Below, one piece after another: positions 4,885-25,586 of a stretch of DNA of 32,000 nucleotides; position 1 is the first letter of the stretch, and every line of letters begins with the position of its first letter. A model generated the notes under the pieces. It did no database searches. It was not told the origin of the DNA and saw only the letters and a program-made list of their open reading frames with translations. Source of the stretch: Candidatus Electronema halotolerans (GTDB taxonomy: Bacteria; Desulfobacterota; Desulfobulbia; Desulfobulbales; Desulfobulbaceae); the NCBI GenBank assembly GCA_942493095.1, contig OW818675.1, positions 1,230,001 to 1,262,000 on the forward strand, given 5' to 3'. The position numbers and the translations under genes are program-made.

Positions 4885-5030
4885 TGCTGCTGTCCTGAAA
4901 AAAAGTCTTTTTTGTTCCGCTTAGTTTACTCTATTATAGCGGATAATTTGAAGCAAATTTTCAGGATCATGTATTCGCAATTCATGCCCCCAAGCCCGGC
5001 TGTCAGTTATGCGGCGGTCGGAGAAAATTG

Positions 5031-5059
5031 TTGACAGAAAAACAATTTCGTCTTATGCT
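5031..5059 (+). promoter_or_regulatory. candidate sigma70-type promoter (TTGACA-17-TATGCT) upstream of hypA
   Basis: TTGACA at 5031-5036, a 17-nt spacer, TATGCT at 5054-5059. A second element, TGgTATAAT at 5131-5139, sits 8 nt before the hypA ATG. Confidence 0.4.
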
Positions 5060-5146
5060 GGACGGAAAATGATGGCTCATGCAGTTATTCCAAACAGTTG
5101 CCTGTTTACGCGGATATGCTGGGCCAAGTCTGGTATAATCGCATCC

Positions 5147-5515
5147 ATGCACGAATTCAGCATTTGCCATGCCTTGGTTGAGAAGGTGCTCGAAGAGGCG
5201 GCCCGGCTTGAGCCGCCCGCGCTCCGGGTCTGCAAGACCGGTGTGGCCTGCGGCAGCCTGCGGCAAATCGTGCCGGAATACCTTCAGACTGCCTACACTG
5301 CCCTGACCAAGGGCACCATTGCCGAGGACTCGCTGCTGGAGATTCGGGAAATCCCGGCGGCAGGCCGCTGCGGCTGCTGCGGCTGGCAGGGCGAGCTGCC
5401 GAACAATGTCTTTGCCTGTCCAGCCTGCGCCGCGCCAATCGCGGATATGTGTGCCGGGCAGGAATTATATCTGGAAAACATAGAGCTGGAGCAGGATGAC
5501 GAGACGGGAAATTAA
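5147..5515 (+). CDS. hypA: hydrogenase nickel-insertion protein HypA
   Basis: I chose the internal start MHEFSICHALVEKVLE, the typical HypA N-terminus. Zinc site is CGCCGWQG...ACPAC. Typical length (122 aa). Confidence 0.9.
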   Translation: MHEFSICHALVEKVLEEAARLEPPALRVCKTGVACGSLRQIVPEYLQTAYTALTKGTIAEDSLLEIREIPAAGRCGCCGWQGELPNNVFACPACAAPIADMCAGQELYLENIELEQDDETGN

Positions 5516-6149
5516 GGTCTATCAGGAGCTGATGGGCGACAATGCGCACTGGGCGCAGCAGACGCGGGACTTGCTGGCCAAACAGCAGCTGGCCATGATC
5601 AACCTGATCGGCTCGCCCGGCTGCGGCAAGACCGCCCTGCTGGAGCGGCTGGCCGAGCAGCCCGATCTCCGCTTTGCCGTCTTGGAAGGAGACATTGAGA
5701 CCACCAACGATGCCGAGCGGCTGGCCCGGAAAAACGTGCTGGCCAGCCAGCTCCTGACCAAGGGCAGCTGCCACTTGGAGGCCAAGCTGGTCCATCATGC
5801 CCTCCGCGACCTGCCCTTGGCCGAGCTGGATTTGGTGGTGGTGGAGAATGTCGGCAATCTGGTCTGCCCGGCTGAGTTTGACATTGGCGAGCAGGCCAAA
5901 ATCGCTGTCCTCAGCGTGACCGAAGGCGAGGACAAGCCGCTCAAATACCCGCTCCTCTTTCGCGAGGCCAAGGCTGTCATCCTCTCCAAAATAGACCTGC
6001 TGCCCCACCTGCGTTTTGATCTTGAGGCGTGCATTGCCAATGTCCGCACGATCAACGGTGCTGTGCCCTTGTTTCATCTCTCCTCCGCCTCCGGGGCAGG
6101 CATGGACGATTTTACCGCCTGGCTGGGCAAGGAAATTCTGCATGGTTAA
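5496..6149 (+). CDS. hypB: hydrogenase maturation GTPase HypB
   Basis: P-loop GSPGCGKTALLERL, then CHLEA, ENVGNLVCPA and SKIDLL motifs. Overlaps hypA by 20 nt. Confidence 0.92.
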   Translation: MTRREIKVYQELMGDNAHWAQQTRDLLAKQQLAMINLIGSPGCGKTALLERLAEQPDLRFAVLEGDIETTNDAERLARKNVLASQLLTKGSCHLEAKLVHHALRDLPLAELDLVVVENVGNLVCPAEFDIGEQAKIAVLSVTEGEDKPLKYPLLFREAKAVILSKIDLLPHLRFDLEACIANVRTINGAVPLFHLSSASGAGMDDFTAWLGKEILHG

Positions 6150-8484: not shown

Positions 8485-8490
8485 ACTGGC

Positions 8491-8516
8491 AGGGTGCATT
8501 CCATGCACCCTTTTCT
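8491..8516 (+). terminator. hairpin terminator after hypF
   Basis: AGGGTGCAT (8491-8499) pairs with ATGCACCCT (8503-8511), followed by TTTCT. Confidence 0.6.
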
Positions 8517-8528
8517 GGTGCTGCACGA

Positions 8529-8768: not shown

Positions 8769-9308
8769 ATGGCTCTTCTTCCACCAATCGAGATTGAATC
8801 AGAACTAAGCTACGCTTACTTGCATGCCGTGGCAGCAATGGCGGGCATGTCGTGTGAATGTTCAGGCCGACATACTGATAAGCTGGGAGTTGATGCTATT
8901 GTCAGAGCGCAAGAACAGTTTTCCGATGAATCAATTTTGACTGATTTGGCTCTTGACGTACAATTGAAAGCAACAATTGTCGCACCAAGCAAAAAAAATG
9001 ACAGACTTTCATATCACCTCAAAGGAATAGACAGATACGATAAACTGAGAAAATCGACAGTAAATCCAGCCAGAATTCTTGTTGTTCTCTTTCTGCCAAA
9101 TAATGCCGCTGACTGGATGCACCAGACCCAAGAACAGTTAGCAATAAAAAAATGTGCTTGGTGGGTAAGTCTTAGAGGAGCACCTGAAACTGATAACGAT
9201 TCTGGCGTTACAGTATATCTTCCTTGCGCTCAGGTATTCAACGTGCAAAGTCTCAGAGATATTATGACACGTCTGTCTAAACAGGAGGAACTGCTGTATG
9301 ATGTATAA
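8769..9308 (+). CDS. DUF4365-like (restriction-endonuclease fold) protein
   Basis: RBS AAGAGG. SELSYAYLHAVAAMAGMSC...TDKLGVDAIV...LDVQLKAT...ILVVLFLPNNAADWM...AWWVSLRG matches my memory of the DUF4365 pattern (D.GiD...vQvKat). AT-richer than the flanks. Confidence 0.7.
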   Translation: MALLPPIEIESELSYAYLHAVAAMAGMSCECSGRHTDKLGVDAIVRAQEQFSDESILTDLALDVQLKATIVAPSKKNDRLSYHLKGIDRYDKLRKSTVNPARILVVLFLPNNAADWMHQTQEQLAIKKCAWWVSLRGAPETDNDSGVTVYLPCAQVFNVQSLRDIMTRLSKQEELLYDV

Positions 9309-10455
9309 TTATCAATTATTACAGTTAGCCAGTCAGATACTTCCAACTGAAGCAAGAAATTATGCGAAAGTTCATGGCTGGGAGCCTGTCACGGCAGCTA
9401 AAGGCAGGATTTGGGTCTTCAGGCATAGCGTGCAGAAACTTCGCCAGCTCGTTATCCCTATAGACCAAGAGGACGATGCATATTCTGAAGCAATTGTAGA
9501 GGTGTTGCAACGAATAGCTGACGATGAAAAGCGCAGTCCAATTGCTGTTGCTTCAGACCTCCTGATGCCGAATTCAGATATTGTACGGTTTCGAGTCGCC
9601 GGGGATGATATATTAGCTGGAAATTTATCTCTTGAGGATGGAGCATGTCTGATTGAAGGCGCAAAACGAGCTATTCTCTCGTCAGCGTGCTCGGTTATTA
9701 ACAAGACAACACACCATCCAAGAATGAGCAGGAGTGAAGCAGCAGAGATGCTGAAAGCCTGCAAGTTTGGCCAAACTGAATATGGGAGTTTTGTCGCTAA
9801 AATCGCCTGCCCTCTTAATGCGGTGGAGACAAATGCGTCTTTATTAGATGCGACGATGCCGTTTGTACGACATGCAACAAAATTGCTATCTTCAGCATGT
9901 CATCAACTTGTTGAGAGCATTGAAAATGATGCCGTATCAGCATTGATAGAAAACAATTCAGCCAACCCGATAATAACATCTAATCTCTGTGATGCTCTGC
10001 TGCGAATGCAAGGAGGGAGGGAAAAAAGCTCTCTTGGTATCGACATCACATGGGCTTCTAATCCCAATGTTCCCATTCCTGATGTTCCAAGGGGGGTAGT
10101 CTTCAAAGCGGAATACTTCCGAACAGTAGATGAAATACAAAGAGCATTGCGGCCTAAAAAAGAGAGCGACAGTTCTCAAACGTTGCTTGGCACTGTAGAA
10201 ACTTTAAATGGCCCTGTAGGTGAGGATGGCCGCCGTTCCGGTGAAGTGATTTTAGCCCTGCTTCTTGAGGATGAAGAGGTTGTCCGTGCCCGTGCTGTTC
10301 TTGGTCCAGATGAATATGCCCGTGCTGTTCAAGCTCATAACAAAGGGCGAACTTATATAATGGTTAAAGGTGTGCTTCAACGAGGGAACCGAATCAGCAG
10401 CCTGCAACAGGTTGAATCCTTCGATCTTGTAGGTCAATCTCCTCCTTCAGAGTAA
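9298..10455 (+). CDS. hypothetical 385-aa protein, translationally coupled to the DUF4365-like gene
   Basis: GGAGGA lies 8 nt upstream of the ATG. There is an 11-nt overlap with the upstream gene. No Walker A or other motif recognised. AT-richer composition. Confidence 0.7.
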   Translation: MMYNYQLLQLASQILPTEARNYAKVHGWEPVTAAKGRIWVFRHSVQKLRQLVIPIDQEDDAYSEAIVEVLQRIADDEKRSPIAVASDLLMPNSDIVRFRVAGDDILAGNLSLEDGACLIEGAKRAILSSACSVINKTTHHPRMSRSEAAEMLKACKFGQTEYGSFVAKIACPLNAVETNASLLDATMPFVRHATKLLSSACHQLVESIENDAVSALIENNSANPIITSNLCDALLRMQGGREKSSLGIDITWASNPNVPIPDVPRGVVFKAEYFRTVDEIQRALRPKKESDSSQTLLGTVETLNGPVGEDGRRSGEVILALLLEDEEVVRARAVLGPDEYARAVQAHNKGRTYIMVKGVLQRGNRISSLQQVESFDLVGQSPPSE

Positions 10456-13400: not shown

Positions 13401-15368
13401 ATGGACCGAGAAATTCAGGAACGAAAGCGACAAGGCGGCATCATGGAGCAGCTGCTCAAACTCAGGCTGCGGACCATTTTAGGCTTGCTCCTTGTTTCTC
13501 TGCCGCTCATCTATATCGGCATTTCCTTAGTCTCAATTGAAGAAGGCCATGTCGGCATTGTCTTTGCCAAAGTTGGCAGCAAGCCTGCCGTGGCAGACCG
13601 CTTCATTGTCGAGGCAGGCGAGAAAGGTTATCAGCGCGAGGTGCTGATGCCGGGCATGCGCTTCTACTGGTTCTTGGAGCCATTCTGGAAATACACGATC
13701 ACTGAGGAACCGTTTGTCAAAATCCCACCCGGCATGATCGGGGTGGTCAATGCCAAGGATGGCTATCCCATGCGGCCCGGACAAATTTTGGCTGATTCGG
13801 ATGTCTATGGCGAGGACGGCACCTTTACAATGGGGCAGAAGGGGCCGCGCTTGGAAATCCTCAAGCCGGGCGAATACCCGATCAACACTGCCTACTTGGA
13901 GGTCAAGCAGTTCCCGGCAGTGCAAATCCCGGAAGGCAGCCTTGGGGTTTTGACCCGCCTCTACGGTGAGGATCCGCCGCAGGGCACCATCCTCGTGGCC
14001 AAAGAGAGCGGCTTCCGTGGCATCATCCGGGAAGTCCTGCAACCAGGCACCTATTACATCAATCCCAAAGCCTACAAGACTGAGATCGTTGCAGCGGCCA
14101 AGATTGACAAGGGCCAGGTGGGCATCATCACCAAACGAGTGGGCAAAATTCCGCCTGAAGGCACGATCTTGGTTGATGCGAATGACGAGTTCCAAGGCAT
14201 CCAGAAGCAGGTGCTGCAGCCGGGCATGTACTACATCAATCCTTATGAAAAGGCCCTGCGCATTGAGGATGCGGTATCGGTGCCAGATGGTCATGTGGGT
14301 GTGCAGATTGCCAAGACCGGCATTGCCAAACCGGTTGATCAGCTCTTGGCTAAAGCAGGCGAGCGCGGCATTCAGGAGGACACCATGCCGCCTGGTCTCT
14401 ACTATCTCAATCCCTATGCGGTGGAAGTGGTTAATATTGACATCCGCCAGCAGCGCTATGAAATGACCTACCTTGAAGGGCAAGGCGACACCCAGCAGAA
14501 TGATGCAATCGTCTTTTATTCAGATGACGGCTTTGAAATCGCCATTGATGTGACTGTGCTCTTTCAGGTGCTGCCCAATGATGCGCCTTATGTGGTGGCC
14601 ACCATTGGCCGGCGCATTGACGACATCAAGGAGAAGATCATCCGGCCCCAGGCCCGTTCGTATGCCCGGATACTTGGTTCCCGCTACAAGGGCGAGGACT
14701 TTGTCCACGGCGCGACCAGAGAGACCTTTCAGAACGATCTGCATAAAGAGTTGCAGGCCAAAACGATAGAGAGCCGAGTGCAGATGAATCAGGCTTTGGT
14801 GCGTCATTTTGAGGTGCCGACGCAGCTCCGCCAGCCGATCACTGACAAGGTCATTGCCCTGAAGATGCAGGAGAAGTTTGAGCAGGAGCAGAAGACCCAG
14901 AAAGCCAATGCTGACTTGGCCCGTGAAAAGGAGAAGGTGAACTTTGAGTCTGCCAAGGTGGTGGCTGAGACCAAGAAGGTCAAGGCCATCATCCTGGCCG
15001 AGGAGGAGCGGGAGGTTGAGGAAATCAACGTGGCCAAGAAGGAGTTTATTGCCCAAGGCGAAGCCAAGAAGGTTCAGATCGGGGCGGACGCGAACCTGTA
15101 TCAACAGGAGAAAGAGGCTGAAGGTATTTTGGCCGTAGGCAAGGCTAAGGCAGAGGCTAAGAAGCTGGAGCTGTCTGCCTATGAGGGTGACGGCGGCCTG
15201 CGCTTTGCTGAGGTGGAAAAGGCCAAGGCTCTGGGCAGCGGCATTGAAAAGATATACTACATCCCCTCTGACATGAGCATCAACGCCATTGCCAAGGATT
15301 TCGAGAACGCCATCACCGTCGGCCTGCCAGAGCGGCAGAAGGCGGCGGCCAGTCAAACGCAGCCTTGA
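13401..15368 (+). CDS. SPFH/band-7 (flotillin-like) membrane protein with a five-fold repeated N-terminal segment and a C-terminal coiled coil
   Basis: RBS AAGGAG. One N-terminal TM helix. Five units of hVGv...G..ILv...G....L.PG.YYINP. Then the SPFH core FYSDDGFEIAIDVTVLFQV...ARSYARILGS, followed by an E/K/A-rich coiled coil. Confidence 0.85.
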   Translation: MDREIQERKRQGGIMEQLLKLRLRTILGLLLVSLPLIYIGISLVSIEEGHVGIVFAKVGSKPAVADRFIVEAGEKGYQREVLMPGMRFYWFLEPFWKYTITEEPFVKIPPGMIGVVNAKDGYPMRPGQILADSDVYGEDGTFTMGQKGPRLEILKPGEYPINTAYLEVKQFPAVQIPEGSLGVLTRLYGEDPPQGTILVAKESGFRGIIREVLQPGTYYINPKAYKTEIVAAAKIDKGQVGIITKRVGKIPPEGTILVDANDEFQGIQKQVLQPGMYYINPYEKALRIEDAVSVPDGHVGVQIAKTGIAKPVDQLLAKAGERGIQEDTMPPGLYYLNPYAVEVVNIDIRQQRYEMTYLEGQGDTQQNDAIVFYSDDGFEIAIDVTVLFQVLPNDAPYVVATIGRRIDDIKEKIIRPQARSYARILGSRYKGEDFVHGATRETFQNDLHKELQAKTIESRVQMNQALVRHFEVPTQLRQPITDKVIALKMQEKFEQEQKTQKANADLAREKEKVNFESAKVVAETKKVKAIILAEEEREVEEINVAKKEFIAQGEAKKVQIGADANLYQQEKEAEGILAVGKAKAEAKKLELSAYEGDGGLRFAEVEKAKALGSGIEKIYYIPSDMSINAIAKDFENAITVGLPERQKAAASQTQP

Positions 15369-15429: not shown

Positions 15430-16161
15430 TCACGATTTCTGCACATCCAGCGAGAAACAGAGATGCCCGAACCGCTGCTCGATATAATCAAGCAACGTGT
15501 AGATGAGCAGGACAACCCCGATCATCTCCAAGAACTCCTCAATCGTGAACAGCACGATATAGGTGACGGTGTAATAGCCGTGCAATTCAGCCTCTTTTCC
15601 GCCGAGCATATCAAATCCCACAGCCCCGCTCAGAAAGATAATCGCGGAAAGGATCAAGAGAACAGTTGTCTTGCGGGGAAGGCGAAGAATAAAGCGAAAA
15701 TAGAGCAGCCCCAGGATGATCATCAGGATGCTGTAGGGAATAACCCAAGGAAAATAGAGCAAGCCGCTTGCCTCAAGAATCCCTGTTGATTTGATGTATT
15801 CCGCTGTGTAATCACCGAGTCTTTCATGCAGGACAAAGGATTCATCTAAGGAGAGAAAAAGAAAAACAGCGGCAAGACCGAGCCAGTAACGGCGCTTACT
15901 TCCCTGTTTTTCCTCTAACGAGGCGATACAGAAAAAGAGAAGGGAAGATAAAAAGAGGGCCAAGCCTGAATACAAGGAAGGGATATTCTTCTCTATATCC
16001 AGATCAACATAGCTTGTAATGTACCTCAGATCCTGATTCCCGGTATAGAGAAGAACTGCCTGGGCTATACAGTGCAGCACGGTCAACAGGATGACAAATG
16101 CCAGCAAAAAGAGCGCTGTTTCGCGGGGATGAATTTTTAGCTGAAACATAGGCAGAACCAT
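15430..16161 (-). CDS. hypothetical polytopic membrane protein
   Basis: About 6-7 hydrophobic helices (ALFLLAFVILLTVLH, LYSGLALFLSSLLFFCIA, WLGLAAVFLFLSL and others). AT-richer. Same strand as the Gly/Tyr-rich genes and downstream of them. Confidence 0.65.
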   Translation of the reverse strand: MVLPMFQLKIHPRETALFLLAFVILLTVLHCIAQAVLLYTGNQDLRYITSYVDLDIEKNIPSLYSGLALFLSSLLFFCIASLEEKQGSKRRYWLGLAAVFLFLSLDESFVLHERLGDYTAEYIKSTGILEASGLLYFPWVIPYSILMIILGLLYFRFILRLPRKTTVLLILSAIIFLSGAVGFDMLGGKEAELHGYYTVTYIVLFTIEEFLEMIGVVLLIYTLLDYIEQRFGHLCFSLDVQKS

Positions 16162-16320
16162 AATCTGAAAGTAATTGAAAGGGAAAGGAGAACGGTTTAT
16201 GCTTGTATCGAAGCTGGCTGCTGAGGCAGTGCAATAAATAACCTCCCGATATTCATGAGGAGCCGCCTCAGACTTTTCAGACAGCTCCTTCTTGTCATGC
16301 GCTGGCAGGCTTAATCGTTG

Positions 16321-16674
16321 TTAGTAGCTATAGCCTCTGTATTCATACCCATTGTTATTGTTGTAGTAAGGTGTTCCGGGCGTTCTTGGCGTTCCGGGCA
16401 CTCCATAAGCTCCTGGTGCTCCATAAGCTCCGGGCACTCCATAAGCACCGGGTGTTCCATAAGCACCGCGATATTCGTAGCGGCTGCCGCGATAACCATA
16501 ACTTCCATTATTGTAGTACGTTCCTGGATAAGCACCGCGATATTCATAGCGGCTGCCGTAGCCATAGCCGCGTTCATAGCCGCTGCCGTATCCGCCGCTG
16601 CCCTGGGCAGTTGCGAAAAGTGCCAGTACGAGGAATGATCCGGCCAAGGCGATAGCTGCTGTTGTCTTTTTCAC
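16321..16674 (-). CDS. secreted Gly/Tyr-rich low-complexity protein, copy 1
   Basis: GTG start 7 nt after AGGAGG. Signal peptide MKKTTAAIALAGSFLVLALFATA. The mature 94 residues use only 11 amino-acid types, with 23 Tyr and 25 Gly by my count. Internal repeats are SRYEYRGAY x2 and GAYG(V/A)PG x4. Confidence 0.75.
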   Translation of the reverse strand: MKKTTAAIALAGSFLVLALFATAQGSGGYGSGYERGYGYGSRYEYRGAYPGTYYNNGSYGYRGSRYEYRGAYGTPGAYGVPGAYGAPGAYGVPGTPRTPGTPYYNNNNGYEYRGYSY

Positions 16675-16855
16675 GAGGAATCCTCCTTTTGTGGGTTAAA
16701 GAGAGCGAATTGCTCTTGTGTATGATTATATAATAGCAAAGAAAAGATTAACGGAAGATGAACTTGAAACTTTTTTTGCTTTCCAGGAAACAAGGAGCCG
16801 CCTCAGACTTTTCAGGCAGCTCCTTCTTGTCATGCGCTGGCAGGCTTAATCGTTG

Positions 16856-17209
16856 TTAGTAGCTATAGCCTCTGTATTCATACCCATTGTTATTGTTGTA
16901 GTAAGGTGTTCCGGGCGTTCTTGGCGTTCCGGGCACTCCATAAGCTCCTGGTGCTCCATAAGCTCCGGGCACTCCATAAGCACCGGGTGTTCCATAAGCA
17001 CCGCGATATTCGTAGCGGCTGCCGCGATAACCATAACTTCCATTATTGTAGTACGTTCCTGGATAAGCACCGCGATATTCATAGCGGCTGCCGTAGCCAT
17101 AGCCGCGTTCATAGCCGCTGCCATATCCGCCGCTGCCTTGGGCAGTTGCGAAAAGTGCCAGTACGAGGAATGATCCGGCCAAGGCGATAGCTGCTGTTGT
17201 CTTTTTCAC
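16856..17209 (-). CDS. secreted Gly/Tyr-rich low-complexity protein, copy 2 (identical protein)
   Basis: Same as copy 1. The two CDS differ at two positions, both synonymous (CAG/CAA Gln, TAC/TAT Tyr). Confidence 0.75.
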   Translation of the reverse strand: MKKTTAAIALAGSFLVLALFATAQGSGGYGSGYERGYGYGSRYEYRGAYPGTYYNNGSYGYRGSRYEYRGAYGTPGAYGVPGAYGAPGAYGVPGTPRTPGTPYYNNNNGYEYRGYSY

Positions 17210-17684
17210 GAGGAATCCTCCTTTTGTGGGTTAAAGAGAGCGAATTGCTCTTGTTTATAATTATAAGATAGCAAAGAAAAGATTAACGGAAGATTAACTA
17301 TAATAACTATAATAATGGTTCGATAATTTTTTTTTTGTATCGGATAGCTGCCAGACACTAACTGTTTAAAATTGTTACAACTGATCAGTTTTCAGTTGCT
17401 TTGATTAACATGTTGAAATTGCTAAATTAAAAGTTATCCACAGAACCATTGTATAAAACTTTTTTAGCAGTTTCAGGCATCGCGGCGATGCGGCGGGTGA
17501 GCTTTGTGTTGCCAGCGACTTCGTCAAGCACTGCGATTATTCCCTCTCTTTCCTGCTCCCCCACATGCCTCATCTGCCCTCACCTCGATCATACGTTTGA
17601 GATTTCCTCAACATACGTTCCACCCTGCCGCCGCACCTCATCCGCCGCCCGCCTACAGCATTTTGCAATAGCTGCCTCTTTTTC

Positions 17685-18033: not shown

Positions 18034-19506
18034 ATGCTCCGAACTTCGCTGAACACGCCGCAGGAATTCACCATCACTTATGAGCTGGTGCCGGGTCAGG
18101 GCTGCGGCGGCAAGCGGCTGGACCGGCTCCTCGACTTCTCCCGCAAGATCAAGGAAGATGGGCGAATCAAGGCCCTGTCGATCACTGACAATCCGGGCGG
18201 CAATCCTGCCTTGGCTCCCTCAGCCATTGGCGAGGAACTGCTGCGCATAGGCATTGAGCCGCTTATCCACTTTTCATTGAAGGACAAGAACCGGAGCCAG
18301 ATATTCAGTCATATCTACCTCTATCAGCGGCTGGGCCTGCATTCGTTGCTGGTGCTGGGCGGCGACTTTCCCAAGCGCGGGTATTACGGGCAGGCCCGGC
18401 CTGTCTATGACTTGGACAGCATCCAGACCCTCCAGCTCATGCACGAAATGGAGACCGGGGTCTATCCTGAGCCGAACGGCGACAGTCCGCCGCCCCGGCT
18501 CTTCAAGGGCTGCGTGGTCTCGCCCTTTAAGCAGACCGAGGCCGAGCAGGTCTGGCAGTATGCCAAGCTCCTGCACAAGGTGCGGGCCGGTGCTGACTTC
18601 ATCATCAGTCAGCTCGGCTTTGATCTGAGCAAATTCCGCGAGCTGATGCGCTTTCTGCACCAGCACAACATCAAGCTGCCGGTACTGGCCAACATCTTTA
18701 TTCCCTCGCTGCCCGTGGCGCGGGCTATGGCCGCAGGCCGGGTGCCGGGTGTGCTGCTTGCGGAAACCTTAGTCAAGGAGATGGAAGCTGAGGAGGCAGA
18801 TGGACGGCTTGAGCAGGCCCGTCTTGACCGGGCCGCCTTCATGATTGCTTGGGCCAAGCGGTGCGGCTGTCAAGGCGTGCATCTGGGCGGCAACAAGCTG
18901 CGTTTCCGTGATGTTCAAACTGTTTTGAACAAGTTCGAGGAATTGGACCATCTGCCAGAGCTGCCAGAGACAGGGAATGATTATCCTCTGTCAAAAACGT
19001 GGTATTTTTATCAGGCAGGCGGGATTGAAGAAACACCGCTGCAACCGGGCCAACGGCAGGGCACAGTCTGGCTCTCAGCTCTCAGTCATCCCTTATTCTT
19101 TGAGCAGCGCAATCTGAGTAGCAGGCTCTTTGCCCGCTTCTGCCTCTTCTGCGCCCAGGGCAAAGGCCGCACCGCTGCCCTGACCTTGCTGGAGCGGGCA
19201 ATCAAGCGGCTGCTTTTCACCTGCCGGATGTGCGGCGATTGCACCTTGTCGCGATCCGCCTATCTTTGCCCGCAGTCAGGCTGTCCCAAACAGCTGATCA
19301 ATGGCCCCTGCGGCGGCAGCCGCTTTGGTTTCTGCGAAGTCCATCCTCAACGCCGCTGCTTCTGGGTCCGGGTTTATGAGCGGCTTGATCCTCAGACCAC
19401 ACTGGCTGATTTGGCTGCGCTGCCGCACCTGCCGCCCAAGGACTGGGCCTTGGACAAAACCTCCTCGTGGATCAACTATTTCAGAAGCAAGCCAAGTGCT
19501 GTCTGA
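18034..19506 (+). CDS. metF: methylenetetrahydrofolate reductase fused to a C-terminal Cys-rich MetV-like (MTHFR_C) domain
   Basis: The N-terminal 300 aa are MTHFR-like (ELVPGQG...ALSITDNPGGNPAL...LLVLGGD). The C-terminus CRMCGDCTLSRSAYLCPQSGCPKQLINGPCGG matches the zinc-ribbon domain of MetV-type subunits. Confidence 0.8.
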   Translation: MLRTSLNTPQEFTITYELVPGQGCGGKRLDRLLDFSRKIKEDGRIKALSITDNPGGNPALAPSAIGEELLRIGIEPLIHFSLKDKNRSQIFSHIYLYQRLGLHSLLVLGGDFPKRGYYGQARPVYDLDSIQTLQLMHEMETGVYPEPNGDSPPPRLFKGCVVSPFKQTEAEQVWQYAKLLHKVRAGADFIISQLGFDLSKFRELMRFLHQHNIKLPVLANIFIPSLPVARAMAAGRVPGVLLAETLVKEMEAEEADGRLEQARLDRAAFMIAWAKRCGCQGVHLGGNKLRFRDVQTVLNKFEELDHLPELPETGNDYPLSKTWYFYQAGGIEETPLQPGQRQGTVWLSALSHPLFFEQRNLSSRLFARFCLFCAQGKGRTAALTLLERAIKRLLFTCRMCGDCTLSRSAYLCPQSGCPKQLINGPCGGSRFGFCEVHPQRRCFWVRVYERLDPQTTLADLAALPHLPPKDWALDKTSSWINYFRSKPSAV

Positions 19507-19729
19507 GTCCGGCCCAGCGGTCGCCACTTGCCATTCTTGAATGGTTAGGCGCAATTTTGTCGATTTCCCTGCCATTTTAAGCAGCCCGTTGCTTGCTGCC
19601 AAACGTCCCTGCGGCTGAATTATTTTTTATCACCATTTATTATCTCGTGTAAAATCAAGGCTTCTTGCCGCAATCGCCTAACAGCGGCAGGACTGGCTCT
19701 TGTTTTGCATTGCACAAAGCAGTCGGCTG

Positions 19730-19760
19730 CGTTATACCGTTATGTCAAAATATCATAACG
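19730..19760. promoter_or_regulatory. ModE-box-like operator (CGTTAT repeated, with inverted ATAACG)
   Basis: CGTTATAC CGTTAT-N11-ATAACG, about 110 nt upstream of modE. It resembles the E. coli modA operator half-sites (CGTTAT...ATAACG) as I remember them. Confidence 0.4.
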
Positions 19761-19871
19761 CAGGCGGACAGCACACTGGATGGGCTGTTGCGGGAAAGAT
19801 GATCAGCTAACTGGCTGAGAAGCGCAGCCAGCATGCGCAGGGAATTTTGTCAGAGCTTCCAAGAGAAAACT

Positions 19872-20657
19872 ATGTCAGAACCCATTGACCTGCTCTACGA
19901 ACTCATCGGCTGGTCCGGCAGCAGTCCGACTGTCCGGCTTCTTCAGGCGTTGGAGCAAACCGGTTCAATCAACAGGGCTGCCCAATCCATAGGCATGCAA
20001 TACAGAACTGCTTGGCAGAAGATTTGTCATCTCAACAATTTGTTATCTTACCCCCTCTTGACGAGGCAAACCGGAGGCAGCGGCGGCGGCGGCTCTGTGT
20101 TCACTGAAGAAGGCAGGAAACTGCTCAACCGAATTAAATTGCTGCAACGCGAATTTAAGCAGTTTAAACAGCTGGCTGCGGACGATCCGCAGGAGGCTCT
20201 GGATATCATCAAAACACTCAGGAGAATGGAAATGAAACTCAGTGCCCGGAATGTATGGTTTGGAGTGGTGGCAGGCATTGATCATGGCGCAGTGAACAGC
20301 GTAGTTTCTGTGCAGCTCAAGGGCAATGACAACATCACTTCCATGATAACCGACAGCTCTGTAAAACGATTGGCTCTTGCGCCGGGGAAAGAAGTGATGG
20401 CGATTGTCAAAGCCTCCAATGTCATGCTTGGCTGCGACATGGATTTCACTAAAATTTCCGCCCGAAACATCCTTACTGGAACTGTCAGCAACATTGTCTC
20501 TGGTGTGGTTAATGATGAAATAACTATTGAACTGCCTGGTGGCAGCACAGTCACCTCAATCATCACCTCAGCCAGCGTCAAGAGACTGAGTATAACGGTC
20601 GGTAAAGCAGTTTCCGCAATTATCAAGGCATCGGATGTGCTGCTGGCTGTAGCCTGA
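19872..20657 (+). CDS. modE: molybdate-responsive regulator ModE (HTH plus two Mop/TOBE domains)
   Basis: The N-terminus has TGSINRAAQSIGMQYRTAWQKI...GGSGGGGSVFTEEG, the ModE signature. Two TOBE repeats follow (SARNVWFGVV...KASNVML and SARNILTGTV...KASDVLL). Start is uncertain: 19833 is in frame upstream. Confidence 0.85.
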   Translation: MSEPIDLLYELIGWSGSSPTVRLLQALEQTGSINRAAQSIGMQYRTAWQKICHLNNLLSYPLLTRQTGGSGGGGSVFTEEGRKLLNRIKLLQREFKQFKQLAADDPQEALDIIKTLRRMEMKLSARNVWFGVVAGIDHGAVNSVVSVQLKGNDNITSMITDSSVKRLALAPGKEVMAIVKASNVMLGCDMDFTKISARNILTGTVSNIVSGVVNDEITIELPGGSTVTSIITSASVKRLSITVGKAVSAIIKASDVLLAVA

Positions 20658-20678
20658 TGTAACCAAAGGAGAGAGGAG

Positions 20679-22007
20679 ATGAAGAAGAAAATGCTGTCCG
20701 CAGGAGGAATGTTGCTGCTTTTTGCCGCTGCCGTCTCTGCCGCAGAGACAGGCCGGAAAACAGAACTTGCCGTGCAAATCCGGCAGCGGCTGGAATCGCT
20801 GGAAAACTTCAACGACAAATTTTACGGCACAGAACCCAAGCTCGGTGACTCATCCGACACCTATCTGCTCAGTCGCCTGCGCGTGGGCCTGACCCATCAA
20901 TTCAACCAATATTTCGTCGGCAAGATCAGCTTGCAGGACAGCCGTGTCTTTGGCTGGGCCTTTGACGACCAGGACTGGGTGAACAGCGAGTTCAGCGGCA
21001 TGGAAAACAATCCCCAGAGCGACCCGCTGGAGCTGGGAGAAACTTGGCTGCAATACACGCAGGGCGGACTGAGTGCCAAGGCGGGCCGTCAGTCGATCAG
21101 TTATGGCAACAACCGGGTTTTCGGGCCGGGCGAGTGGAAGAATTCCGGCAAATGGGTCTGGGATGCAGTCAAGGCGAGCTATGCCTGCAACAAGAACTGG
21201 GCAGAAGTCTTTTACGGCGAAACCATGCTCCATGAGCCGGATGTCTTCAGTTTGGATCATCGGCACGGCTATGTTGGCGCAGGACTGTACGGCCATGTTC
21301 AGGCGACAGATTTTCTCGCTGTCGAGCCGATTGCCGCCAGCAAGAACAATGATGAAAGCGACGACTATGCGGAAAAGGAGCTGTATTACTACGGCGCACG
21401 GCTGCTGCTGGAGCTGGACAGCTTCACTGCGGACGGCACGTATATGCAGCAGACTGGCGACATCACAGCTGAGAATGGCGGAACGACAGACTCTGATGCC
21501 TATGGCTGGAATCTTGATCTGGAATACCGCTTTCATCCACAATGGGCAATTGGCAGCACGGTCAGTTTTGCGACTGGCGACGACAAAGACACGCCTGACA
21601 ACGAACGCTTTGATGCCGTCTATGGCGCATCAGACAAGTATTACGGCCTGATGAACTTCATGGCTTGGTCAAATATGCTTGATTACGGCCTGCTGCTCAA
21701 ATTCCAGCCCCAGAAAAAACTGCAAGTGATGGCGGAATATCACCAGTTTTATGCGGATCGGATCAATGACAAATGGAAGAGCTACAAGAGCGGCCTGCAA
21801 ACCGAAAGCGACCATTACGGCAATGAGATTGATCTGGCCGTCAAATGGAATCTCAACAAGACGTGGAAGTTTTATGCCGGGGCTGGCATTTTCATGCCCG
21901 GCGATGCGATTGAGGAGGCTGTCGCTGCTGGGCAGGATTTCATCACTGACGACACCGCTTACTCTGGTTTCTTGCAAATAACCTATTCCTTCAGCCATGT
22001 TTTGTAA
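20679..22007 (+). CDS. outer-membrane beta-barrel porin, alginate-export-like family
   Basis: Strong RBS AAAGGAGAGAGGAG. Signal peptide ending AAVSAAE. An alternating aromatic/polar beta-strand pattern runs to the C-terminal FLQITYSF. The family call is tentative. Confidence 0.65.
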   Translation: MKKKMLSAGGMLLLFAAAVSAAETGRKTELAVQIRQRLESLENFNDKFYGTEPKLGDSSDTYLLSRLRVGLTHQFNQYFVGKISLQDSRVFGWAFDDQDWVNSEFSGMENNPQSDPLELGETWLQYTQGGLSAKAGRQSISYGNNRVFGPGEWKNSGKWVWDAVKASYACNKNWAEVFYGETMLHEPDVFSLDHRHGYVGAGLYGHVQATDFLAVEPIAASKNNDESDDYAEKELYYYGARLLLELDSFTADGTYMQQTGDITAENGGTTDSDAYGWNLDLEYRFHPQWAIGSTVSFATGDDKDTPDNERFDAVYGASDKYYGLMNFMAWSNMLDYGLLLKFQPQKKLQVMAEYHQFYADRINDKWKSYKSGLQTESDHYGNEIDLAVKWNLNKTWKFYAGAGIFMPGDAIEEAVAAGQDFITDDTAYSGFLQITYSFSHVL

Positions 22008-22008
22008 A

Positions 22009-22728
22009 ATGAAACGATCCTTTGCTGTGGCTCTTGTTTTCACTCTTCTGGCCATATCTTCTGCGCAGGCGGGCGAGCTGCGTCTGCTTTCCGCCGGAGG
22101 CTACAAGAAATCAATGCAGGCCGTCCTTGCCGCCTATAAAGAGCAGACCGGCCAGCAGGCTGAGGTGGGTTATGGCAACATGCGTCAGGTTCTTTCGCAG
22201 GCCAAGCTGACCGGCCAAGCGGCCTTGGTGATAGGTGACGAGAAGTTTCTCCGGCAGGAAAACATCTTTGCCAGTTTCCAACCAATCGGCGAGGGCAAGC
22301 TGGTGCTGGCTTGGGCGCAGGGCAGTCCGGCAATCAGCAAGCCAGAAGACCTGCTCCGGCCAGAAGTGGCCCGCATTGCCCACCCGGACAAAAGCAAGGC
22401 CATTTTTGGCAGGGCGGCAACAGAATGGCTGCGCAGCCAGCAGCTTGACCAGAAGCTGCAAGCCAAGCTGATTCAGGCGGCCACAGTGCCGCAGGTTTCC
22501 TCCTATCTGGTGGCCAAAGAAGTGGATGCCGGTTTCATCAGCATGACCGATGCCATTGGTTTGGGCGGCAAGCTCGGCGGCTACCTGCCGCTGCCTTCGG
22601 GTTATGAAAAAATTGTCATTGTCGCCGGAAGCATCAAAGGACACGAGAACGATGCGGCGGCCAAAGATTTCCTAGCCTTCCTGACCGGGCCGCAGGCACG
22701 GCGCATCTTCAAGGAGCATGGCATGTGA
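22009..22728 (+). CDS. modA: molybdate/tungstate ABC transporter periplasmic binding protein
   Basis: I chose ATG 22009, just after the porin stop. Signal peptide MKRSFAVALVFTLLAISSAQA. The body resembles ModA-type binding proteins (LSAGGYKKSMQAVLAAYKEQTG...YGNMRQVLSQ). Confidence 0.78.
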   Translation: MKRSFAVALVFTLLAISSAQAGELRLLSAGGYKKSMQAVLAAYKEQTGQQAEVGYGNMRQVLSQAKLTGQAALVIGDEKFLRQENIFASFQPIGEGKLVLAWAQGSPAISKPEDLLRPEVARIAHPDKSKAIFGRAATEWLRSQQLDQKLQAKLIQAATVPQVSSYLVAKEVDAGFISMTDAIGLGGKLGGYLPLPSGYEKIVIVAGSIKGHENDAAAKDFLAFLTGPQARRIFKEHGM

Positions 22729-23411
22729 GCTGCGCAGACTGGACACTGGCAGGCTGCGGCCTGACACCGCTTTGGATCAGCCTGCGGGTTCTGCTGGGCA
22801 GCGCGATCCTGCTGCTTGTCGCCGGGCTGCCCTTGGCCATGCTCCTGAGCCGACCCGGCTGGCGGGGACGGATGCTGCTGGAAATCGTTGTCACTCTACC
22901 GTTGATCTTTCCGCCAGTGGCCATCGGCTTCTTCTTTCTCTTAGCCTTGGGCCGCAAAGGCTGGATCAACCGTCTGCTGCCGCCAGAGCAGACTTTGGAA
23001 ATCATTTTCTCCTTTCAAGCCCTGCTGCTCGCCAGTGTGCTGGCCGGGCTGCCTCTGATGGTCAAACCGGTGCAGGCGGCCTTGGAAAAGGAAACTCGTC
23101 CGCTGGTCGAGGCGGCCTACAGCTTGGGCAAAAACCGCTGGCAGACGTTCTGGCATGTCACCCTGCCCGGCATCAGTCGGGCCGTGGCAGCCGGACTGAC
23201 GCTCGGCTTGGGCAGGGGCATGGGCGAGGTCGGCATGAGCCTGATGCTGGGCGGCAATCTGATCGGCAAGACCGAAACCCTGTCCTTGGCCATTTACAAC
23301 GCAGTCTTGGACGGCAACTTTCACTGCGCCATGATTTATGCGTGGATTCTGGCCGGACTGGCCCTGCTGCTCTTTGCCGGGCTGCGCTGGTTCGGAGGAC
23401 GGACAGGCTGA
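22725..23411 (+). CDS. modB: molybdate ABC transporter permease
   Basis: ATGTGA overlap with modA. Polytopic. The EAA loop is EAAYSLGKNRWQTFWHVTLPG. Confidence 0.88.
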   Translation: MSCADWTLAGCGLTPLWISLRVLLGSAILLLVAGLPLAMLLSRPGWRGRMLLEIVVTLPLIFPPVAIGFFFLLALGRKGWINRLLPPEQTLEIIFSFQALLLASVLAGLPLMVKPVQAALEKETRPLVEAAYSLGKNRWQTFWHVTLPGISRAVAAGLTLGLGRGMGEVGMSLMLGGNLIGKTETLSLAIYNAVLDGNFHCAMIYAWILAGLALLLFAGLRWFGGRTG

Positions 23412-23436
23412 ATTATGCTGAGGCGGCAGGCTGGTT

Positions 23437-23465
23437 GTTGACAAACTGTAGCTTGCACGCTACAA
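23437..23465 (+). promoter_or_regulatory. TA-module promoter (TTGACA-17-TACAAA) with an embedded inverted repeat GTAGC-N6-GCTAC
   Basis: TTGACA at 23437-23442 and TACAAA at 23460-23465. The toxin ATG at 23473 lies only about 7 nt past the -10 element, so the mRNA may be near-leaderless. The inverted repeat is at 23447-23462. Confidence 0.45.
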
Positions 23466-23472
23466 AATATTC

Positions 23473-23784
23473 ATGATCTACGCAATAGAAACCACTGGGG
23501 CATTCGATGGCTGGCTGAAAAAGCTGCGGGACCGTAAAGCCGTTCTTGCTGTTCTCAATCGTCTCGACCGAGCCAAGCTGGGTAATTTTGGCGATGTCAA
23601 ACCAGTCGGAAACGGCATCAGCGAAATGCGGATATTCGTCGGGCCGGGCTATCGTGTCTATTACGTCATCCGTGATGAACGGATAATCCTTCTGCTTTGC
23701 GGTGGCGACAAATCGACTCAAACACGGGATATAGCAAAGGCAAAAGAGATGCTGAAGCACATGGGAGAAGATCATGGCGATTGA
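23473..23784 (+). CDS. addiction-module killer protein (RelE/ParE superfamily, HigB-like)
   Basis: FDGWLKKLRDRKAVLAVLNRLDRAKLGNFGDVKPVGNGISEMRIFVGPGYRVYYVIRDERIILLLCGGDKSTQTRDI is the canonical pattern of this family. Confidence 0.85.
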   Translation: MIYAIETTGAFDGWLKKLRDRKAVLAVLNRLDRAKLGNFGDVKPVGNGISEMRIFVGPGYRVYYVIRDERIILLLCGGDKSTQTRDIAKAKEMLKHMGEDHGD

Positions 23785-24052
23785 AATAAAAGACTACAAT
23801 CCGTTCGACTATCTGGAGACAAAAGAAGAGATCAGCGAATATCTCAACAATGCGTATCTTGACGATGATCCAAGAGTATTTCTTGTGGCACTTGGATATT
23901 TGGCAAAGAAACAGGGAATGAGCGAAGTCGCTAAAAAAGCTGGCCTGAACAGGGAAAGTTTATACAAGGCTCTTGCTGGAGATGGCAATCCGAGATTTTC
24001 CACGGTGAGCAAAGTGATCAAGGCTCTTGGTTGCAAGCTGGCAATTGCGTGA
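23774..24052 (+). CDS. addiction-module antidote protein (HigA-like HTH)
   Basis: DPRVFLVALGYLAKKQGMSEVAKKAGLNRESLYKALAGDGNPRFSTVSKVIKALG is the canonical pattern. It overlaps the toxin gene by 11 nt. Confidence 0.85.
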   Translation: MAIEIKDYNPFDYLETKEEISEYLNNAYLDDDPRVFLVALGYLAKKQGMSEVAKKAGLNRESLYKALAGDGNPRFSTVSKVIKALGCKLAIA

Positions 24053-24075
24053 ATATTTTTCTGGAGGAAGTTGCA

Positions 24076-24921
24076 ATGATCTTTTTCACCACCCAAGAAA
24101 TCGAAGCATGGATCAACGAGGATGCGCCTTTGGTTGATCTGACCAGTCATTTGCTCAAGATCAGCGATCAGCCCGCCCGGCTGACGGTTGTCACCCGCCA
24201 CCCGACCCGCGTTGCCCTGACTGAAGAGGCCGGACGAATCTTCGAGATTCTCGGCGGCACAGTCAAAAGTATGGTTGCTTCCGGGCAAGATGCGGCGGCC
24301 AAGACCGTGATCTTGGAGGTGGAAGGGCCAGCCGCTGCCCTGCACCGGGGCTGGAAAGTTGCTATGAATCTGCTGGAATATATGTGCGGTGTGGCAGGCC
24401 GGACAGCAGAGATGGTCAAAAAGGTGGAAGCCTGCGCCAAGATTCCTCTGCTCGTGACCCGCAAGCATCAGCCGGGCCTGAAAAAGCCGCTGCTCAAAGC
24501 TGTTCTGGCAGGCGGCGCGTATGCGCACCGGCTCGGCCTGTCGGAAACGGTGCTGATCTTTGCCAATCATCTCCGGCTGCTCGGCGGCAGGGAAGCCTTG
24601 CCAGCCCTATTAGCAGAGATGAAGGCTGCGGCCTGCGAACAGAAAATCACCGTGGAATGCGATGACTTGACCCAAGCAATGCAAGCGGCTGAGGCGGGCG
24701 CGGATTCAGTTCAGTTTGACAAGGTGCCGCCGGAGCAGCTTGCGGCTTGGTGCGCGGAATTGAAGAGCCGCTTTGCTCATCTGATTATCCTGAGCGCGGG
24801 CGGAGTCGGGCCGGACAATGTGCAGGACTATGCCCGCACTGGCGTGGACGGCATTGTTCTCAGCTCGATTTTTCATGCCAAGCCCGCTGATCTTGGCGTG
24901 ACCATTGAGCCGCTGCCATGA
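24076..24921 (+). CDS. modD: ModD (quinolinate-phosphoribosyltransferase-like molybdenum transport protein)
   Basis: ATG 24076 follows GGAGGA. MIFFTTQEIEAWINEDAPLVDLTS and the QPRT-like body (TRKHQPGLKKPLLKAVLAGGAYAHRLGLSE...ECDDLTQAMQAAEAGADSVQFDK) are present. Confidence 0.78.
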   Translation: MIFFTTQEIEAWINEDAPLVDLTSHLLKISDQPARLTVVTRHPTRVALTEEAGRIFEILGGTVKSMVASGQDAAAKTVILEVEGPAAALHRGWKVAMNLLEYMCGVAGRTAEMVKKVEACAKIPLLVTRKHQPGLKKPLLKAVLAGGAYAHRLGLSETVLIFANHLRLLGGREALPALLAEMKAAACEQKITVECDDLTQAMQAAEAGADSVQFDKVPPEQLAAWCAELKSRFAHLIILSAGGVGPDNVQDYARTGVDGIVLSSIFHAKPADLGVTIEPLP

Positions 24922-25586
24922 AAGCACTCCATTTTGACCTGCGCGGCAGGCTGGCCAGCGCAGCCGGGCCACTGAACGTGCATTGGCGCAAAGAACTGGC
25001 CCCTGGCAGCACCATTGTTCTCAGCGGCGAGTCAGGCAGCGGCAAGACCACCCTGCTGCGTGCGCTCTGCGGCCTGCCCGCGCAGGTGAGCGGCACAGTG
25101 GCTTGGGGAGAGGCACTCTGGCAGACCGAGGAAAAAATCCGCGTCCCGATTCAGCGGCGGCGGCTCGGCCTGATGTTTCAGCAGTATGGCCTGTTCCCGC
25201 ACAAGACCGTGCGCCAGCAGCTTGAATTTGCCTACAAAGACCCGGAGCGAGTCGAGCTGTGCCTGCGCAAGACCGAGCTGCTCCAGTTTGCCGATGTTCT
25301 GCCCAGCCGTCTTTCCGGCGGTCAGCAGCAGAGGCTGGCCTTGGCCCGCAGTCTGATGCGGCGGCCCGACCTGCTCATTCTTGACGAGCCGGTCAGCGCA
25401 TTGGATGTGCAGTTCCGGGAAAAAATGATCAACTGGCTGGCCGAGGAACGCAGCCAGCGGCCCTTCACCCTGCTGGTGGTCAGCCATCATCCGGCGGAGT
25501 GGGATCCGCTTTGTCCGGCCCAGTGGCAGATGGCGCAGGGGGAATTGTCAGATTTGCCAGCAGAGAGGCACGACCGCAGCCATTGA
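24918..25586 (+). CDS. modC: ABC transporter ATPase, short form without a C-terminal Mop/TOBE domain
   Basis: Walker A GESGSGKTTLL, signature LSGGQQQRLALARSL, Walker B LLILDEP. ATGA overlap with modD. Confidence 0.85.
   Translation: MKALHFDLRGRLASAAGPLNVHWRKELAPGSTIVLSGESGSGKTTLLRALCGLPAQVSGTVAWGEALWQTEEKIRVPIQRRRLGLMFQQYGLFPHKTVRQQLEFAYKDPERVELCLRKTELLQFADVLPSRLSGGQQQRLALARSLMRRPDLLILDEPVSALDVQFREKMINWLAEERSQRPFTLLVVSHHPAEWDPLCPAQWQMAQGELSDLPAERHDRSH

Follow-up and report, generated by a model that had tools for sequence, protein, structure and literature searches.

Within a 32,000-nucleotide stretch of the genome of Candidatus Electronema halotolerans, a cable bacterium (assembly GCA_942493095.1, contig OW818675.1, positions 1,230,001 to 1,262,000 of the forward strand; hereafter the window), two tandem genes encode a small, putatively exported protein rich in glycine and tyrosine, here termed GY, and a gene for a membrane protein, TM243, comes next downstream on that strand. 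Based on the comparisons below, the two appear to be functional copies of a gene specific to the cable-bacterial lineage, and the GY family is a candidate component of the unusual envelope of these organisms. The features of the locus, in window positions, are as follows.

15430–16149, minus strand: TM243 partner gene, encoding a six-helix inner-membrane protein of 239 aa; an alternative ATG lies at 16161.
16258–17327, minus strand: tandem duplication of a whole transcription unit, comprising two 535-bp units (~16258–16792 and ~16793–17327).
16321–16674, minus strand: GY gene copy A, 117 codons with a GTG start, encoding a 23-residue signal peptide and a 94-residue mature part.
16856–17209, minus strand: GY gene copy B, 117 codons with a GTG start, encoding the same protein as copy A.
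16744–16763, minus strand: promoter box pair of copy A, GTTCATCTTCC and GTTAATCTT, two direct repeats phased by 11 bp at the −35 position.
17279–17298, minus strand: promoter box pair of copy B, GTTAATCTTCC and GTTAATCTT.
16725–16730 (copy A) and the equivalent 17260–17265 (copy B), minus strand: −10 hexamer TATAAT, read from the sequence.
16682–16687 (copy A) and 17217–17222 (copy B), minus strand: Shine-Dalgarno sequence AGGAGG, 7 nt before the GTG.
16259–16288 (copy A) and the equivalent 16794–16823 (copy B), minus strand: 3′ stem-loop, within an element of the 3′ untranslated region (3′UTR) that is conserved across genera.

Each 535-bp unit contains its own promoter boxes, −10 element, 5′UTR, coding sequence (CDS) and 3′ hairpin. 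Compared without gaps at an offset of 535, the two CDS differed at two of 354 positions (16588 and 16603), both differences being synonymous (CAG/CAA and TAC/TAT), whereas the flanks of the units differed at 7 of 92 positions on the 5′ side and one of 63 on the 3′ side, such that the CDS were significantly more alike than the flanks (Fisher p=0.0016). The distal promoter regions were additionally separated by a 22-nt indel. Chance does not account for the tandem arrangement, given the length of the 535-bp repeat and a promoter box pattern that was found exactly twice in the window, once per GY copy, and was expected 0.00 times in window shuffles.

The GY precursor begins with a putative signal peptide, MKKTTAAIALAGSFLVLALFATA followed by QG, whose n-region carries KK, ahead of a hydrophobic core and the cleavage motif A-T-A, as read from the sequence. 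These are the features of a Sec substrate of signal peptidase I, specifically a basic n-region, an h-region of ~15 residues and an A-X-A motif with no lipobox Cys; the segment was conserved in 12 genes, and we infer that the product is exported to the periplasm. AlphaFold2 modeled residues 4–25 as a single helix and gave the mature part a pLDDT <50, and the latter, at ~10 kDa, is predicted to be disordered. Only 11 residue types occur in the 94-residue mature protein (G 26.6%, Y 24.5%, R 8.5%, P 8.5%, and four Glu), with C, K, D, L, I, M, F, W and H all absent, and its calculated pI, mass and grand average of hydropathy (GRAVY) were 9.2, 10.2 kDa and −1.24, respectively. Tyr, Gly and Arg, joined in this species by Pro, Asn and Ser, account for nearly all of it. 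Motifs comprised SRYEYRGAY (twice), GAYGxPG (four times, where x is T, V, A and V), YYNNNNGYEY, GYGSGY, GYGYG and YYNNNNGYEYRGY, and the predicted tryptic peptides of GY from this species are QGSGGYGSGYER, GAYPGTYYNNGSYGYR, GAYGTPGAYGVPGAYGAPGAYGVPGTPR and TPGTPYYNNNNGYEYR.

These results largely agreed with a sequence-only reading of the same DNA. It had described 535-bp tandem copies, each with a promoter region, AGGAGG, GTG start and signal peptide, which the open reading frames (ORFs), the repeat period and the separate 3′ hairpins bore out, and it had reported two synonymous CDS differences between copies whose promoter regions had diverged more, as the counts above confirmed. The composition count likewise returned a mature protein of 94 residues and 11 residue types, about one quarter Tyr and one quarter Gly, without Cys, Lys, Asp or large aliphatic residues, and the polytopic membrane protein that had been placed directly downstream on the same strand was located at 15430–16161. 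The listed motifs were all present, with one amendment: the four units given as GAYG(V/A)PG also carry Thr at the variable position.

Conservation of the DNA upstream of GY extended across Electronema and Electrothrix and included the boxes (GTTAATCTTCC GTTAATCTTTTC), a spacer of ~15 nt, TA(T/G)AAT, the 5′UTR and GGAGG. At the other GY loci, the −10 position read TA(T/G)AAT or GTAAT, and GGAGG was retained in nearly all orthologues. A scan for consensus sigma-70 −35/−10 promoters was silent here because the boxes replace the −35 element. The boxes GTTAATCTTCC and GTTAATCTT, seen in the window and at the loci L001–L006, L013 and L040, lie one helical turn apart, and their conservation between genera exceeded that of the protein they control. 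Such geometry is that of sites for winged-helix response regulators of the OmpR/PhoB type, on which basis GY is probably under two-component control. When metagenomic DNA was scanned with a 17-nt promoter word in a hunt for the regulon, 120 loci were returned, of which only L040 was a true site and the others were chance matches. Each GY unit also has a short 5′UTR stem-loop, as well as the GC-rich 3′ stem-loop of 10–12 bp (−19 to −25 kcal/mol), which was not convincing as an intrinsic terminator in the window owing to the lack of a good U tract. The 3′UTR common to both genera reads GATTAA..CATGACAA.AAG.AGCTGTCTG.AAA.TCTGAGGC. Rfam and tRNA scans returned no match anywhere in the window.

One genome per species, from 185,579 species in total, was scanned for GY, and all six loci recovered were from Ca. 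Electronema or Ca. Electrothrix, while a seventh further locus, L040, came from the metagenome scan. The sequence-only reading had named failure of the frame to be conserved in relatives as grounds for rejecting the gene; at the seven further loci (L001–L006 and L040), the reading frame was instead retained, together with the signal peptide, Shine-Dalgarno sequence, box promoter and both UTRs. A protein search recovered 11 GY relatives with a common signal peptide, MKKTTAA(I/L)TL.GSFLVLGLFATA(H/Y/Q)GSG, followed by (GS)RYEYRG repeats. Codon analysis was performed on 11 GY genes (one window copy and ten from other loci), among which the third positions of the signal-peptide codons varied most (16 sites versus 11 and 5), and synonymous differences between pairs (331) outnumbered non-synonymous ones (226). 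Although most of the GY locus is free of stop codons in four of its six frames, the minus-strand ORF can be identified as the coding one because it alone has the conserved start, GGAGG, signal peptide and synonymous bias. We hold with high confidence, from these comparisons, that GY is a real gene. A profile search that covered all 1.84 billion representative proteins yielded only 10 matches at E≤0.001, with at least two of them, P0138 and P0140, having the look of noise from repeats or composition. The family appears to be restricted to cable bacteria.

Within the family, Tyr made up 16–30%, Gly 11–28% and Arg 6–26% of residues, with no Cys, Trp or Phe and nearly no Lys. The Electronema-type proteins (window, L001 and L040) were rich in Gly, Tyr and Pro and contained GAYGxP-like units and YYNNN, while the Electrothrix type consisted of RGSRYEYRG(D/N)E and DDRYEYRGN units, in some cases with tails of Pro, Ala and Thr. 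Repeat numbers changed freely, and the frame was preserved through such changes in 12 genes. Copy number also varied, with two genes in the window and in E. aarhusensis, one each at L001, L002, L004 and L005, and four in E. gigas. Specifically, in Ca. Electrothrix gigas (L006, positions 4209–7764) four tandem GY genes lie between two TM243 paralogues, and three of the four have long Pro-rich tails (PAPTPSPEPAP... or PVPVPVPMPAPAP...). The number of GY genes may rise with the size of the cell or with how many fibres it has. Atlantic sediment metagenome contigs (L013–L015) contained the distant GY members P0137 and P0141, the former with His-rich repeats (EHEYREGHESYEYHNGHERYDDD...) and preceded by the same promoter as the other GY genes. 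TM243 was not found by tblastn on these short contigs, and the next gene at L013 is on the opposite strand; GY paralogues unlinked to TM243 may exist.

GY matched nothing in NCBIfam or PADLOC, and in Pfam only Collagen, below threshold. A PDB match (8zxl/9ius, 'spindlefibril/axialfibril', E=7e-29) had negative per-domain scores against a collagen-like GAPGxQ repeat in the target and was rejected as an artefact of composition. With no genuine relative in Pfam, NCBIfam, PADLOC or PDB, the earlier statement that GY belongs to no recognised bacterial family was upheld. Nine of ten GY members from public genomes were missing from a collection of 15 billion proteins, and the window product was not in the gene-call index, although its neighbours were. 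The contig of a 99.3%-identical strain (L136) begins inside the GY CDS, that is, it breaks within the repeat; in its intergenic DNA, directly after the GY stop codon, an antisense gene was called. Assembly breaks and mis-calling are plausibly among the causes of the poor representation of GY in public protein data. Searches of the literature on cable bacteria together with tyrosine or glycine, and on the YEYRG motif, found no description of the family, which as far as can be told is undescribed.

The constant companion of GY is TM243, which directly follows the GY gene or genes on the same strand at all eight loci with enough downstream DNA, while the outer flanks vary. In the window it is an exact match to CAK8716249.1 (named 'Multidrug transporter' in E. 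halotolerans), and its start is likely at 16149 (MFQLKIH), the upstream ATG at 16161 not being conserved. Identity between Electronema and most Electrothrix loci was 85–88%, with the E. gigas copies at 76% and 67%. The model was a helical bundle (pLDDT 87, pTM 0.86), and hydropathy analysis gave six transmembrane segments. Invariant residues were D51, E53, N55, P57, S61, W89, D102, E103, H108, E109, Y132–W135 (YFPW), E204, E205 and E208, with D49 nearly so. These residues, which include an acidic/His cluster, map to the two acidic loops and, in the last helix, to its outer half; judged by the positive-inside rule, they would face the periplasm. The family signature, DxDxExNxP ... DE-x4-HE ... 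YFPW ... EExxE, marks a widespread, unnamed six-helix family for which there is no Pfam model.

Relatives of TM243 at 38–50% identity were present in Desulfococcaceae, Methylococcaceae, other Gammaproteobacteria and cyanobacteria and on chromids of Alphaproteobacteria and Deinococcus. Upstream of the homologues outside cable bacteria (Desulfococcaceae, Gammaproteobacteria, Pleurocapsa and others) no GY-like ORFs were found; plasmid-borne homologues had inconsistent gene contexts, and there was no TM243 match in phages. Profile searches of Pfam, NCBIfam, PADLOC and PDB returned nothing for TM243, and a Foldseek comparison to PDB gave no match at E<0.1, only generic seven-helix bundles (rhodopsins and GPCRs) with a TM-score of ~0.4. 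Two names that databases attach to TM243 or its homologues were not supported. For peptidase M48 (Ste24p), given to some of the homologues, no member of a set of 21 had a Pfam match, and the sole invariant His lies in LHE(R/G)(L/I)G, not in HEXXH. As for a multidrug transporter, the only sign of an MFS, SMR, RND, MATE or ABC family was sub-threshold MFS_1 noise in two of the 21 (best E=0.009), and the PDB searches were as described above.

The DNA between GY and TM243 contains a strong hairpin with a U-tract at most loci but not in the window. In the near-identical strain, L136, a 43-bp hairpin (CTCCCTTTTCGAGAG...CGAAAAGGGAG) occupies positions 183–225 of the contig and is missing at window positions 16223–16225, a difference that is either a real deletion of a terminator, allowing read-through into TM243, or an assembly error. 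GY has a strong Shine-Dalgarno sequence whereas TM243 has no obvious one, which is consistent with high output of GY and low output of TM243.

Several known systems resemble GY in part. Tyr and Arg 'stickers' drive coacervation, gelation or adhesion in mussel foot proteins (Mfp) and FUS-type proteins. GY shares with Mfp-3, Mfp-5 and FUS-type [G/S]Y[G/S] domains a small or modular, disordered character dominated by Gly, Tyr, Arg and Asn; these are eukaryotic proteins with no sequence homology to it, in contrast to GY, which is bacterial, putatively Sec-exported and paired with a membrane protein, and Mfp proteins depend on conversion of Tyr to DOPA. Resilin has the repeat ...SYGAPGGGN and Tyr residues that give dityrosine cross-links, and elastin has VPGxG. 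The C-terminal half of the window GY, with its four GAYG(T/V/A)PG units holding YGAP and VPG motifs, recalls both, but there are only four such repeats; related units occur in the Electronema relatives and none in the Electrothrix members. High-glycine/tyrosine keratin-associated proteins and plant glycine-rich cell-wall proteins are similarly small, about half Gly plus Tyr, and encoded by tandem gene families, and they serve as matrix between fibres; they differ in being eukaryotic, often Cys-containing and non-homologous.

Two further likenesses did not extend to family membership. Residues 70–96 of the window precursor form nine consecutive Gly-X-Y triplets, as in collagen (PF01391). The Pfam score was 22.5 against a cut-off of 27.2, L001 and L040, which are the nearest orthologues, interrupt the triplet register (e.g., AVPGVYGVPRTYGAPATAPATVPG), and there was no trimerisation domain. 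As in curli (CsgA/CsgB), GY is a small repeat protein with a Sec signal, encoded beside a dedicated envelope partner and built of strand-like repeats that alternate polar and aromatic residues with flanking Gly. There was, however, no Curlin-repeat or other Pfam match and no csg-type gene neighbouring the eight loci, and the GY partner is a helical inner-membrane protein, not an outer-membrane channel.

Our tentative preference, held at a little short of an even chance, is that GY is a self-associating structural-matrix protein of the periplasm or envelope. In such a scheme, the exported protein would act in the periplasm as a 'sticker-spacer' polypeptide, with Tyr and Arg as stickers and Gly, Ser and Pro as spacers, and would self-associate through Tyr–Tyr and Tyr–Arg contacts. 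Alternating R-Y-E-Y-R strands could present one aromatic face and another that is charged and salt-bridged, and within the envelope matrix the protein would form a gel, a coating or a cross-beta material, perhaps hardened later by Tyr cross-links. The acidic/His pocket of TM243 would most likely anchor, nucleate or modify this material, and a response regulator of the OmpR/PhoB type would activate transcription from the boxes at −35. Tandem duplication, giving two genes in the window and up to four in the giant E. gigas, would raise dosage as for a bulk structural product; copy numbers of 1, 2 or 4, the second TM243 of E. gigas, and CDS kept more alike than their flanks all support an effect on dosage. 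The cable-bacterial host, the restriction to this clade and the fixed TM243 partner sharpen ideas of an envelope or fibre role and prove none of them.

Multiple observations weigh against a structural matrix. Every GY member is known from DNA alone, and its self-association, like the fibre, matrix, amyloid, dityrosine and redox-hopping roles, is suggested by composition, just as the assignment of a regulator to its boxes draws on promoter geometry. Electrothrix GY is much more charged (D+E 12–25%, R 15–26%) than Electronema GY, and the physical property common to the family may therefore not be matrix formation. TM243 occurs without GY in unrelated bacteria, so its basic function would be independent of GY, and the hairpin and U-tract between the two genes at most loci imply that they are perhaps not co-transcribed. 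Export beyond the outer membrane is also possible. Neither WLE96683.1 (the TM243 of strain RB) nor 'Multidrug transporter' appears in the expressed-gene tables for E. aureum GS and E. communis RB (PMC13293266), to which the GY gene could not be mapped.

Direct physiological electron hopping through Tyr radicals of GY is unlikely because the potential of the Tyr radical/TyrOH couple is high, at about +0.9 V for pH 7. In vitro, hole hopping via Tyr stacks in amyloid crystals was reported by Shipps et al. (2021), as cited in PMC11603878.

The strongest competitor to a matrix protein, itself unlikely, is a soluble periplasmic protectant or buffer, either hydrophilin-like or binding cations or metals through Tyr, Glu and Asp, and induced by an envelope-stress two-component system. 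The hydrophilicity (GRAVY −1.24) and Gly content (27%) of the window GY would suit this function, as would the richness of marine members in D, E and R, the His-rich distant member, and a promoter architecture that appears typical of stress-responsive response regulators. Metal binding is nevertheless not a family-wide property, as the window GY has no Asp or His and only four Glu, and a protectant leaves both the strict TM243 linkage and the restriction to cable bacteria unexplained.

Somewhat more doubtful is a direct role in the periplasmic conductive fibres or cartwheel junctions, the defining structures of cable bacteria, in which GY would be a major scaffold, sheath or cement ('glue') or a building block, with TM243 to assemble or anchor it. 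GY was found only in cable bacteria, is putatively exported and is amplified in a giant species, and published fibre sheaths, in which protein overlies a layer rich in polysaccharide, yield signals of aromatic amino acids (PMC8238962; PMC10959288). Furthermore, both the molecular make-up of the fibres and their conduction mechanism are treated as unresolved in PMC8238962 and PMC11603878, and there are reasons why such a protein might have escaped notice: gene callers and databases largely omit it, short-read assemblies break in tandem repeats, database-dependent proteomics could have missed it given the absence of nine of ten members and the window product, and trypsin would cut Electrothrix-type GY into very short peptides (YEYR, GSR). 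In contrast, the window GY has no Cys or His with which to ligate the sulfur-coordinated nickel cofactor, and it lacks the Phe and Trp that ToF-SIMS detects along with the third aromatic residue in the sheaths (PMC8238962), hence it cannot be their sole component. As abundant proteins of the envelope, PilA and others have by far the stronger case, and a fibre location for GY is conjectural.

Two readings in which GY is not a bulk material are much less probable again. As a secreted microcin-like toxin with TM243 as its membrane immunity protein, the pair would explain a bacteriocin-like architecture of conserved N-terminus, fast-evolving repetitive core, tandem paralogues in variable copy number and a polytopic membrane protein encoded downstream. 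This is highly improbable in that the leader is a Sec signal, not a double-glycine one, the conserved cassette has no C39-peptidase ABC exporter, PADLOC found no match, and the Tyr/Arg/Asp composition is unlike that of membrane-active peptides. The presumed immunity protein, moreover, is 76–88% conserved while the presumed toxin diverges, the opposite of what co-evolving pairs show, and TM243 occurs alone in other phyla. We give equally little credence to a PqqA-like precursor whose Tyr/Glu (YEY) motifs TM243 would process to a cofactor or modified peptide, an idea for which the small gene, the Glu and Tyr of the repeated RYEYRG and the enzyme-like invariant acidic/His cluster of the neighbouring TM243 speak. 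The N-terminus is a typical hydrophobic Sec signal and not the leader of a ribosomally synthesized, modified peptide; the linked genes include no radical-SAM, YcaO or peptidase gene, and TM243, the only constant neighbour, matches none of these families; species differ freely in how long the core is and how many repeats it has; and the window GY has GAYGxPG in place of many YEYRG units. Finally, that the locus is non-coding, with frames left open by low-complexity DNA and an RNA or antisense ORF as the functional unit, is scarcely credible: the four open frames and the antisense call in the near-identical strain are outweighed by the conserved start, GGAGG, signal peptide and synonymous bias of the minus-strand frame only, by its preservation through repeat-number changes in 12 genes, and by the lack of an Rfam match. 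The remaining probability lies with other functions of GY.

The genomic surroundings of the cassette indicate rearrangement. Among the flanking window proteins, an SPFH protein and an MTHFR-like protein were exact matches to CAK8716242.1 and CAK8716276.1, respectively. The plus-strand segment 17722–18000, located between GY copy B and the gene for the MTHFR-like protein, is a degenerate duplicate of the 3′ end of the SPFH/Band-7 gene (13401–15368, 655 aa); it was 81–94% identical to 14982–15368 with an internal deletion of 103 bp. Direct SPFH-3′ repeats thus bracket the GY-GY-TM243 block. In the Electronema relatives L001 and L040, the order is MTHFR, GY and TM243, co-directional and with no SPFH gene nearby, and on account of this difference and the SPFH repeats the GY locus is considered to have been rearranged in E. 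halotolerans. The MTHFR-like gene adjoins GY in two other Electronema-type loci as well.

Next to the cassette, the plus strand at 18034–25586 encodes the MTHFR-like protein (490 aa, with DUF5981 at its C terminus), a ModE-type molybdate regulator (19833–20657), an Alginate_exp-type outer-membrane protein (20679–22007), a ModA-like binding protein (21997–22728) and an ABC ATPase (24918–25586), which together look like a molybdate/tungstate uptake cluster. Elsewhere in the window, the region 5157–8526 (60–63% GC) has long overlapping ORFs on both strands, one on the plus strand (6016–8484, 822 aa) and four on the minus strand (5157–6164, 6112–6813, 7105–7923 and 7936–8526), all four of which were scanned and had no Pfam match. 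A plus-strand patch of lower GC (8769–10455, ~43–49%) contains a gene for a DUF4365 protein and, beside it, an ORF of 385 aa that matched nothing in Pfam, and may be horizontally acquired or a defence-type islet. A gene resembling those for Mrr_cat restriction endonucleases lies in low-GC DNA at 30842–31408 on the minus strand.

Cable bacteria conduct electrons over centimetre scales via periplasmic fibres whose molecular make-up is treated as unresolved in the literature, and their comparative genomics and proteomics may have been blind to GY, most members of which are missing from the protein collection searched. The GY family is a concrete new, apparently overlooked candidate for the special envelope of these organisms. 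With it come a regulatory site that is conserved and a family of uncharacterised membrane proteins in which an acidic/His pocket is invariant. Even with no part in conduction, GY would stand as one of the few bacterial low-complexity proteins of the Tyr/Arg/Gly 'sticker-spacer' kind to act outside the cytoplasm.

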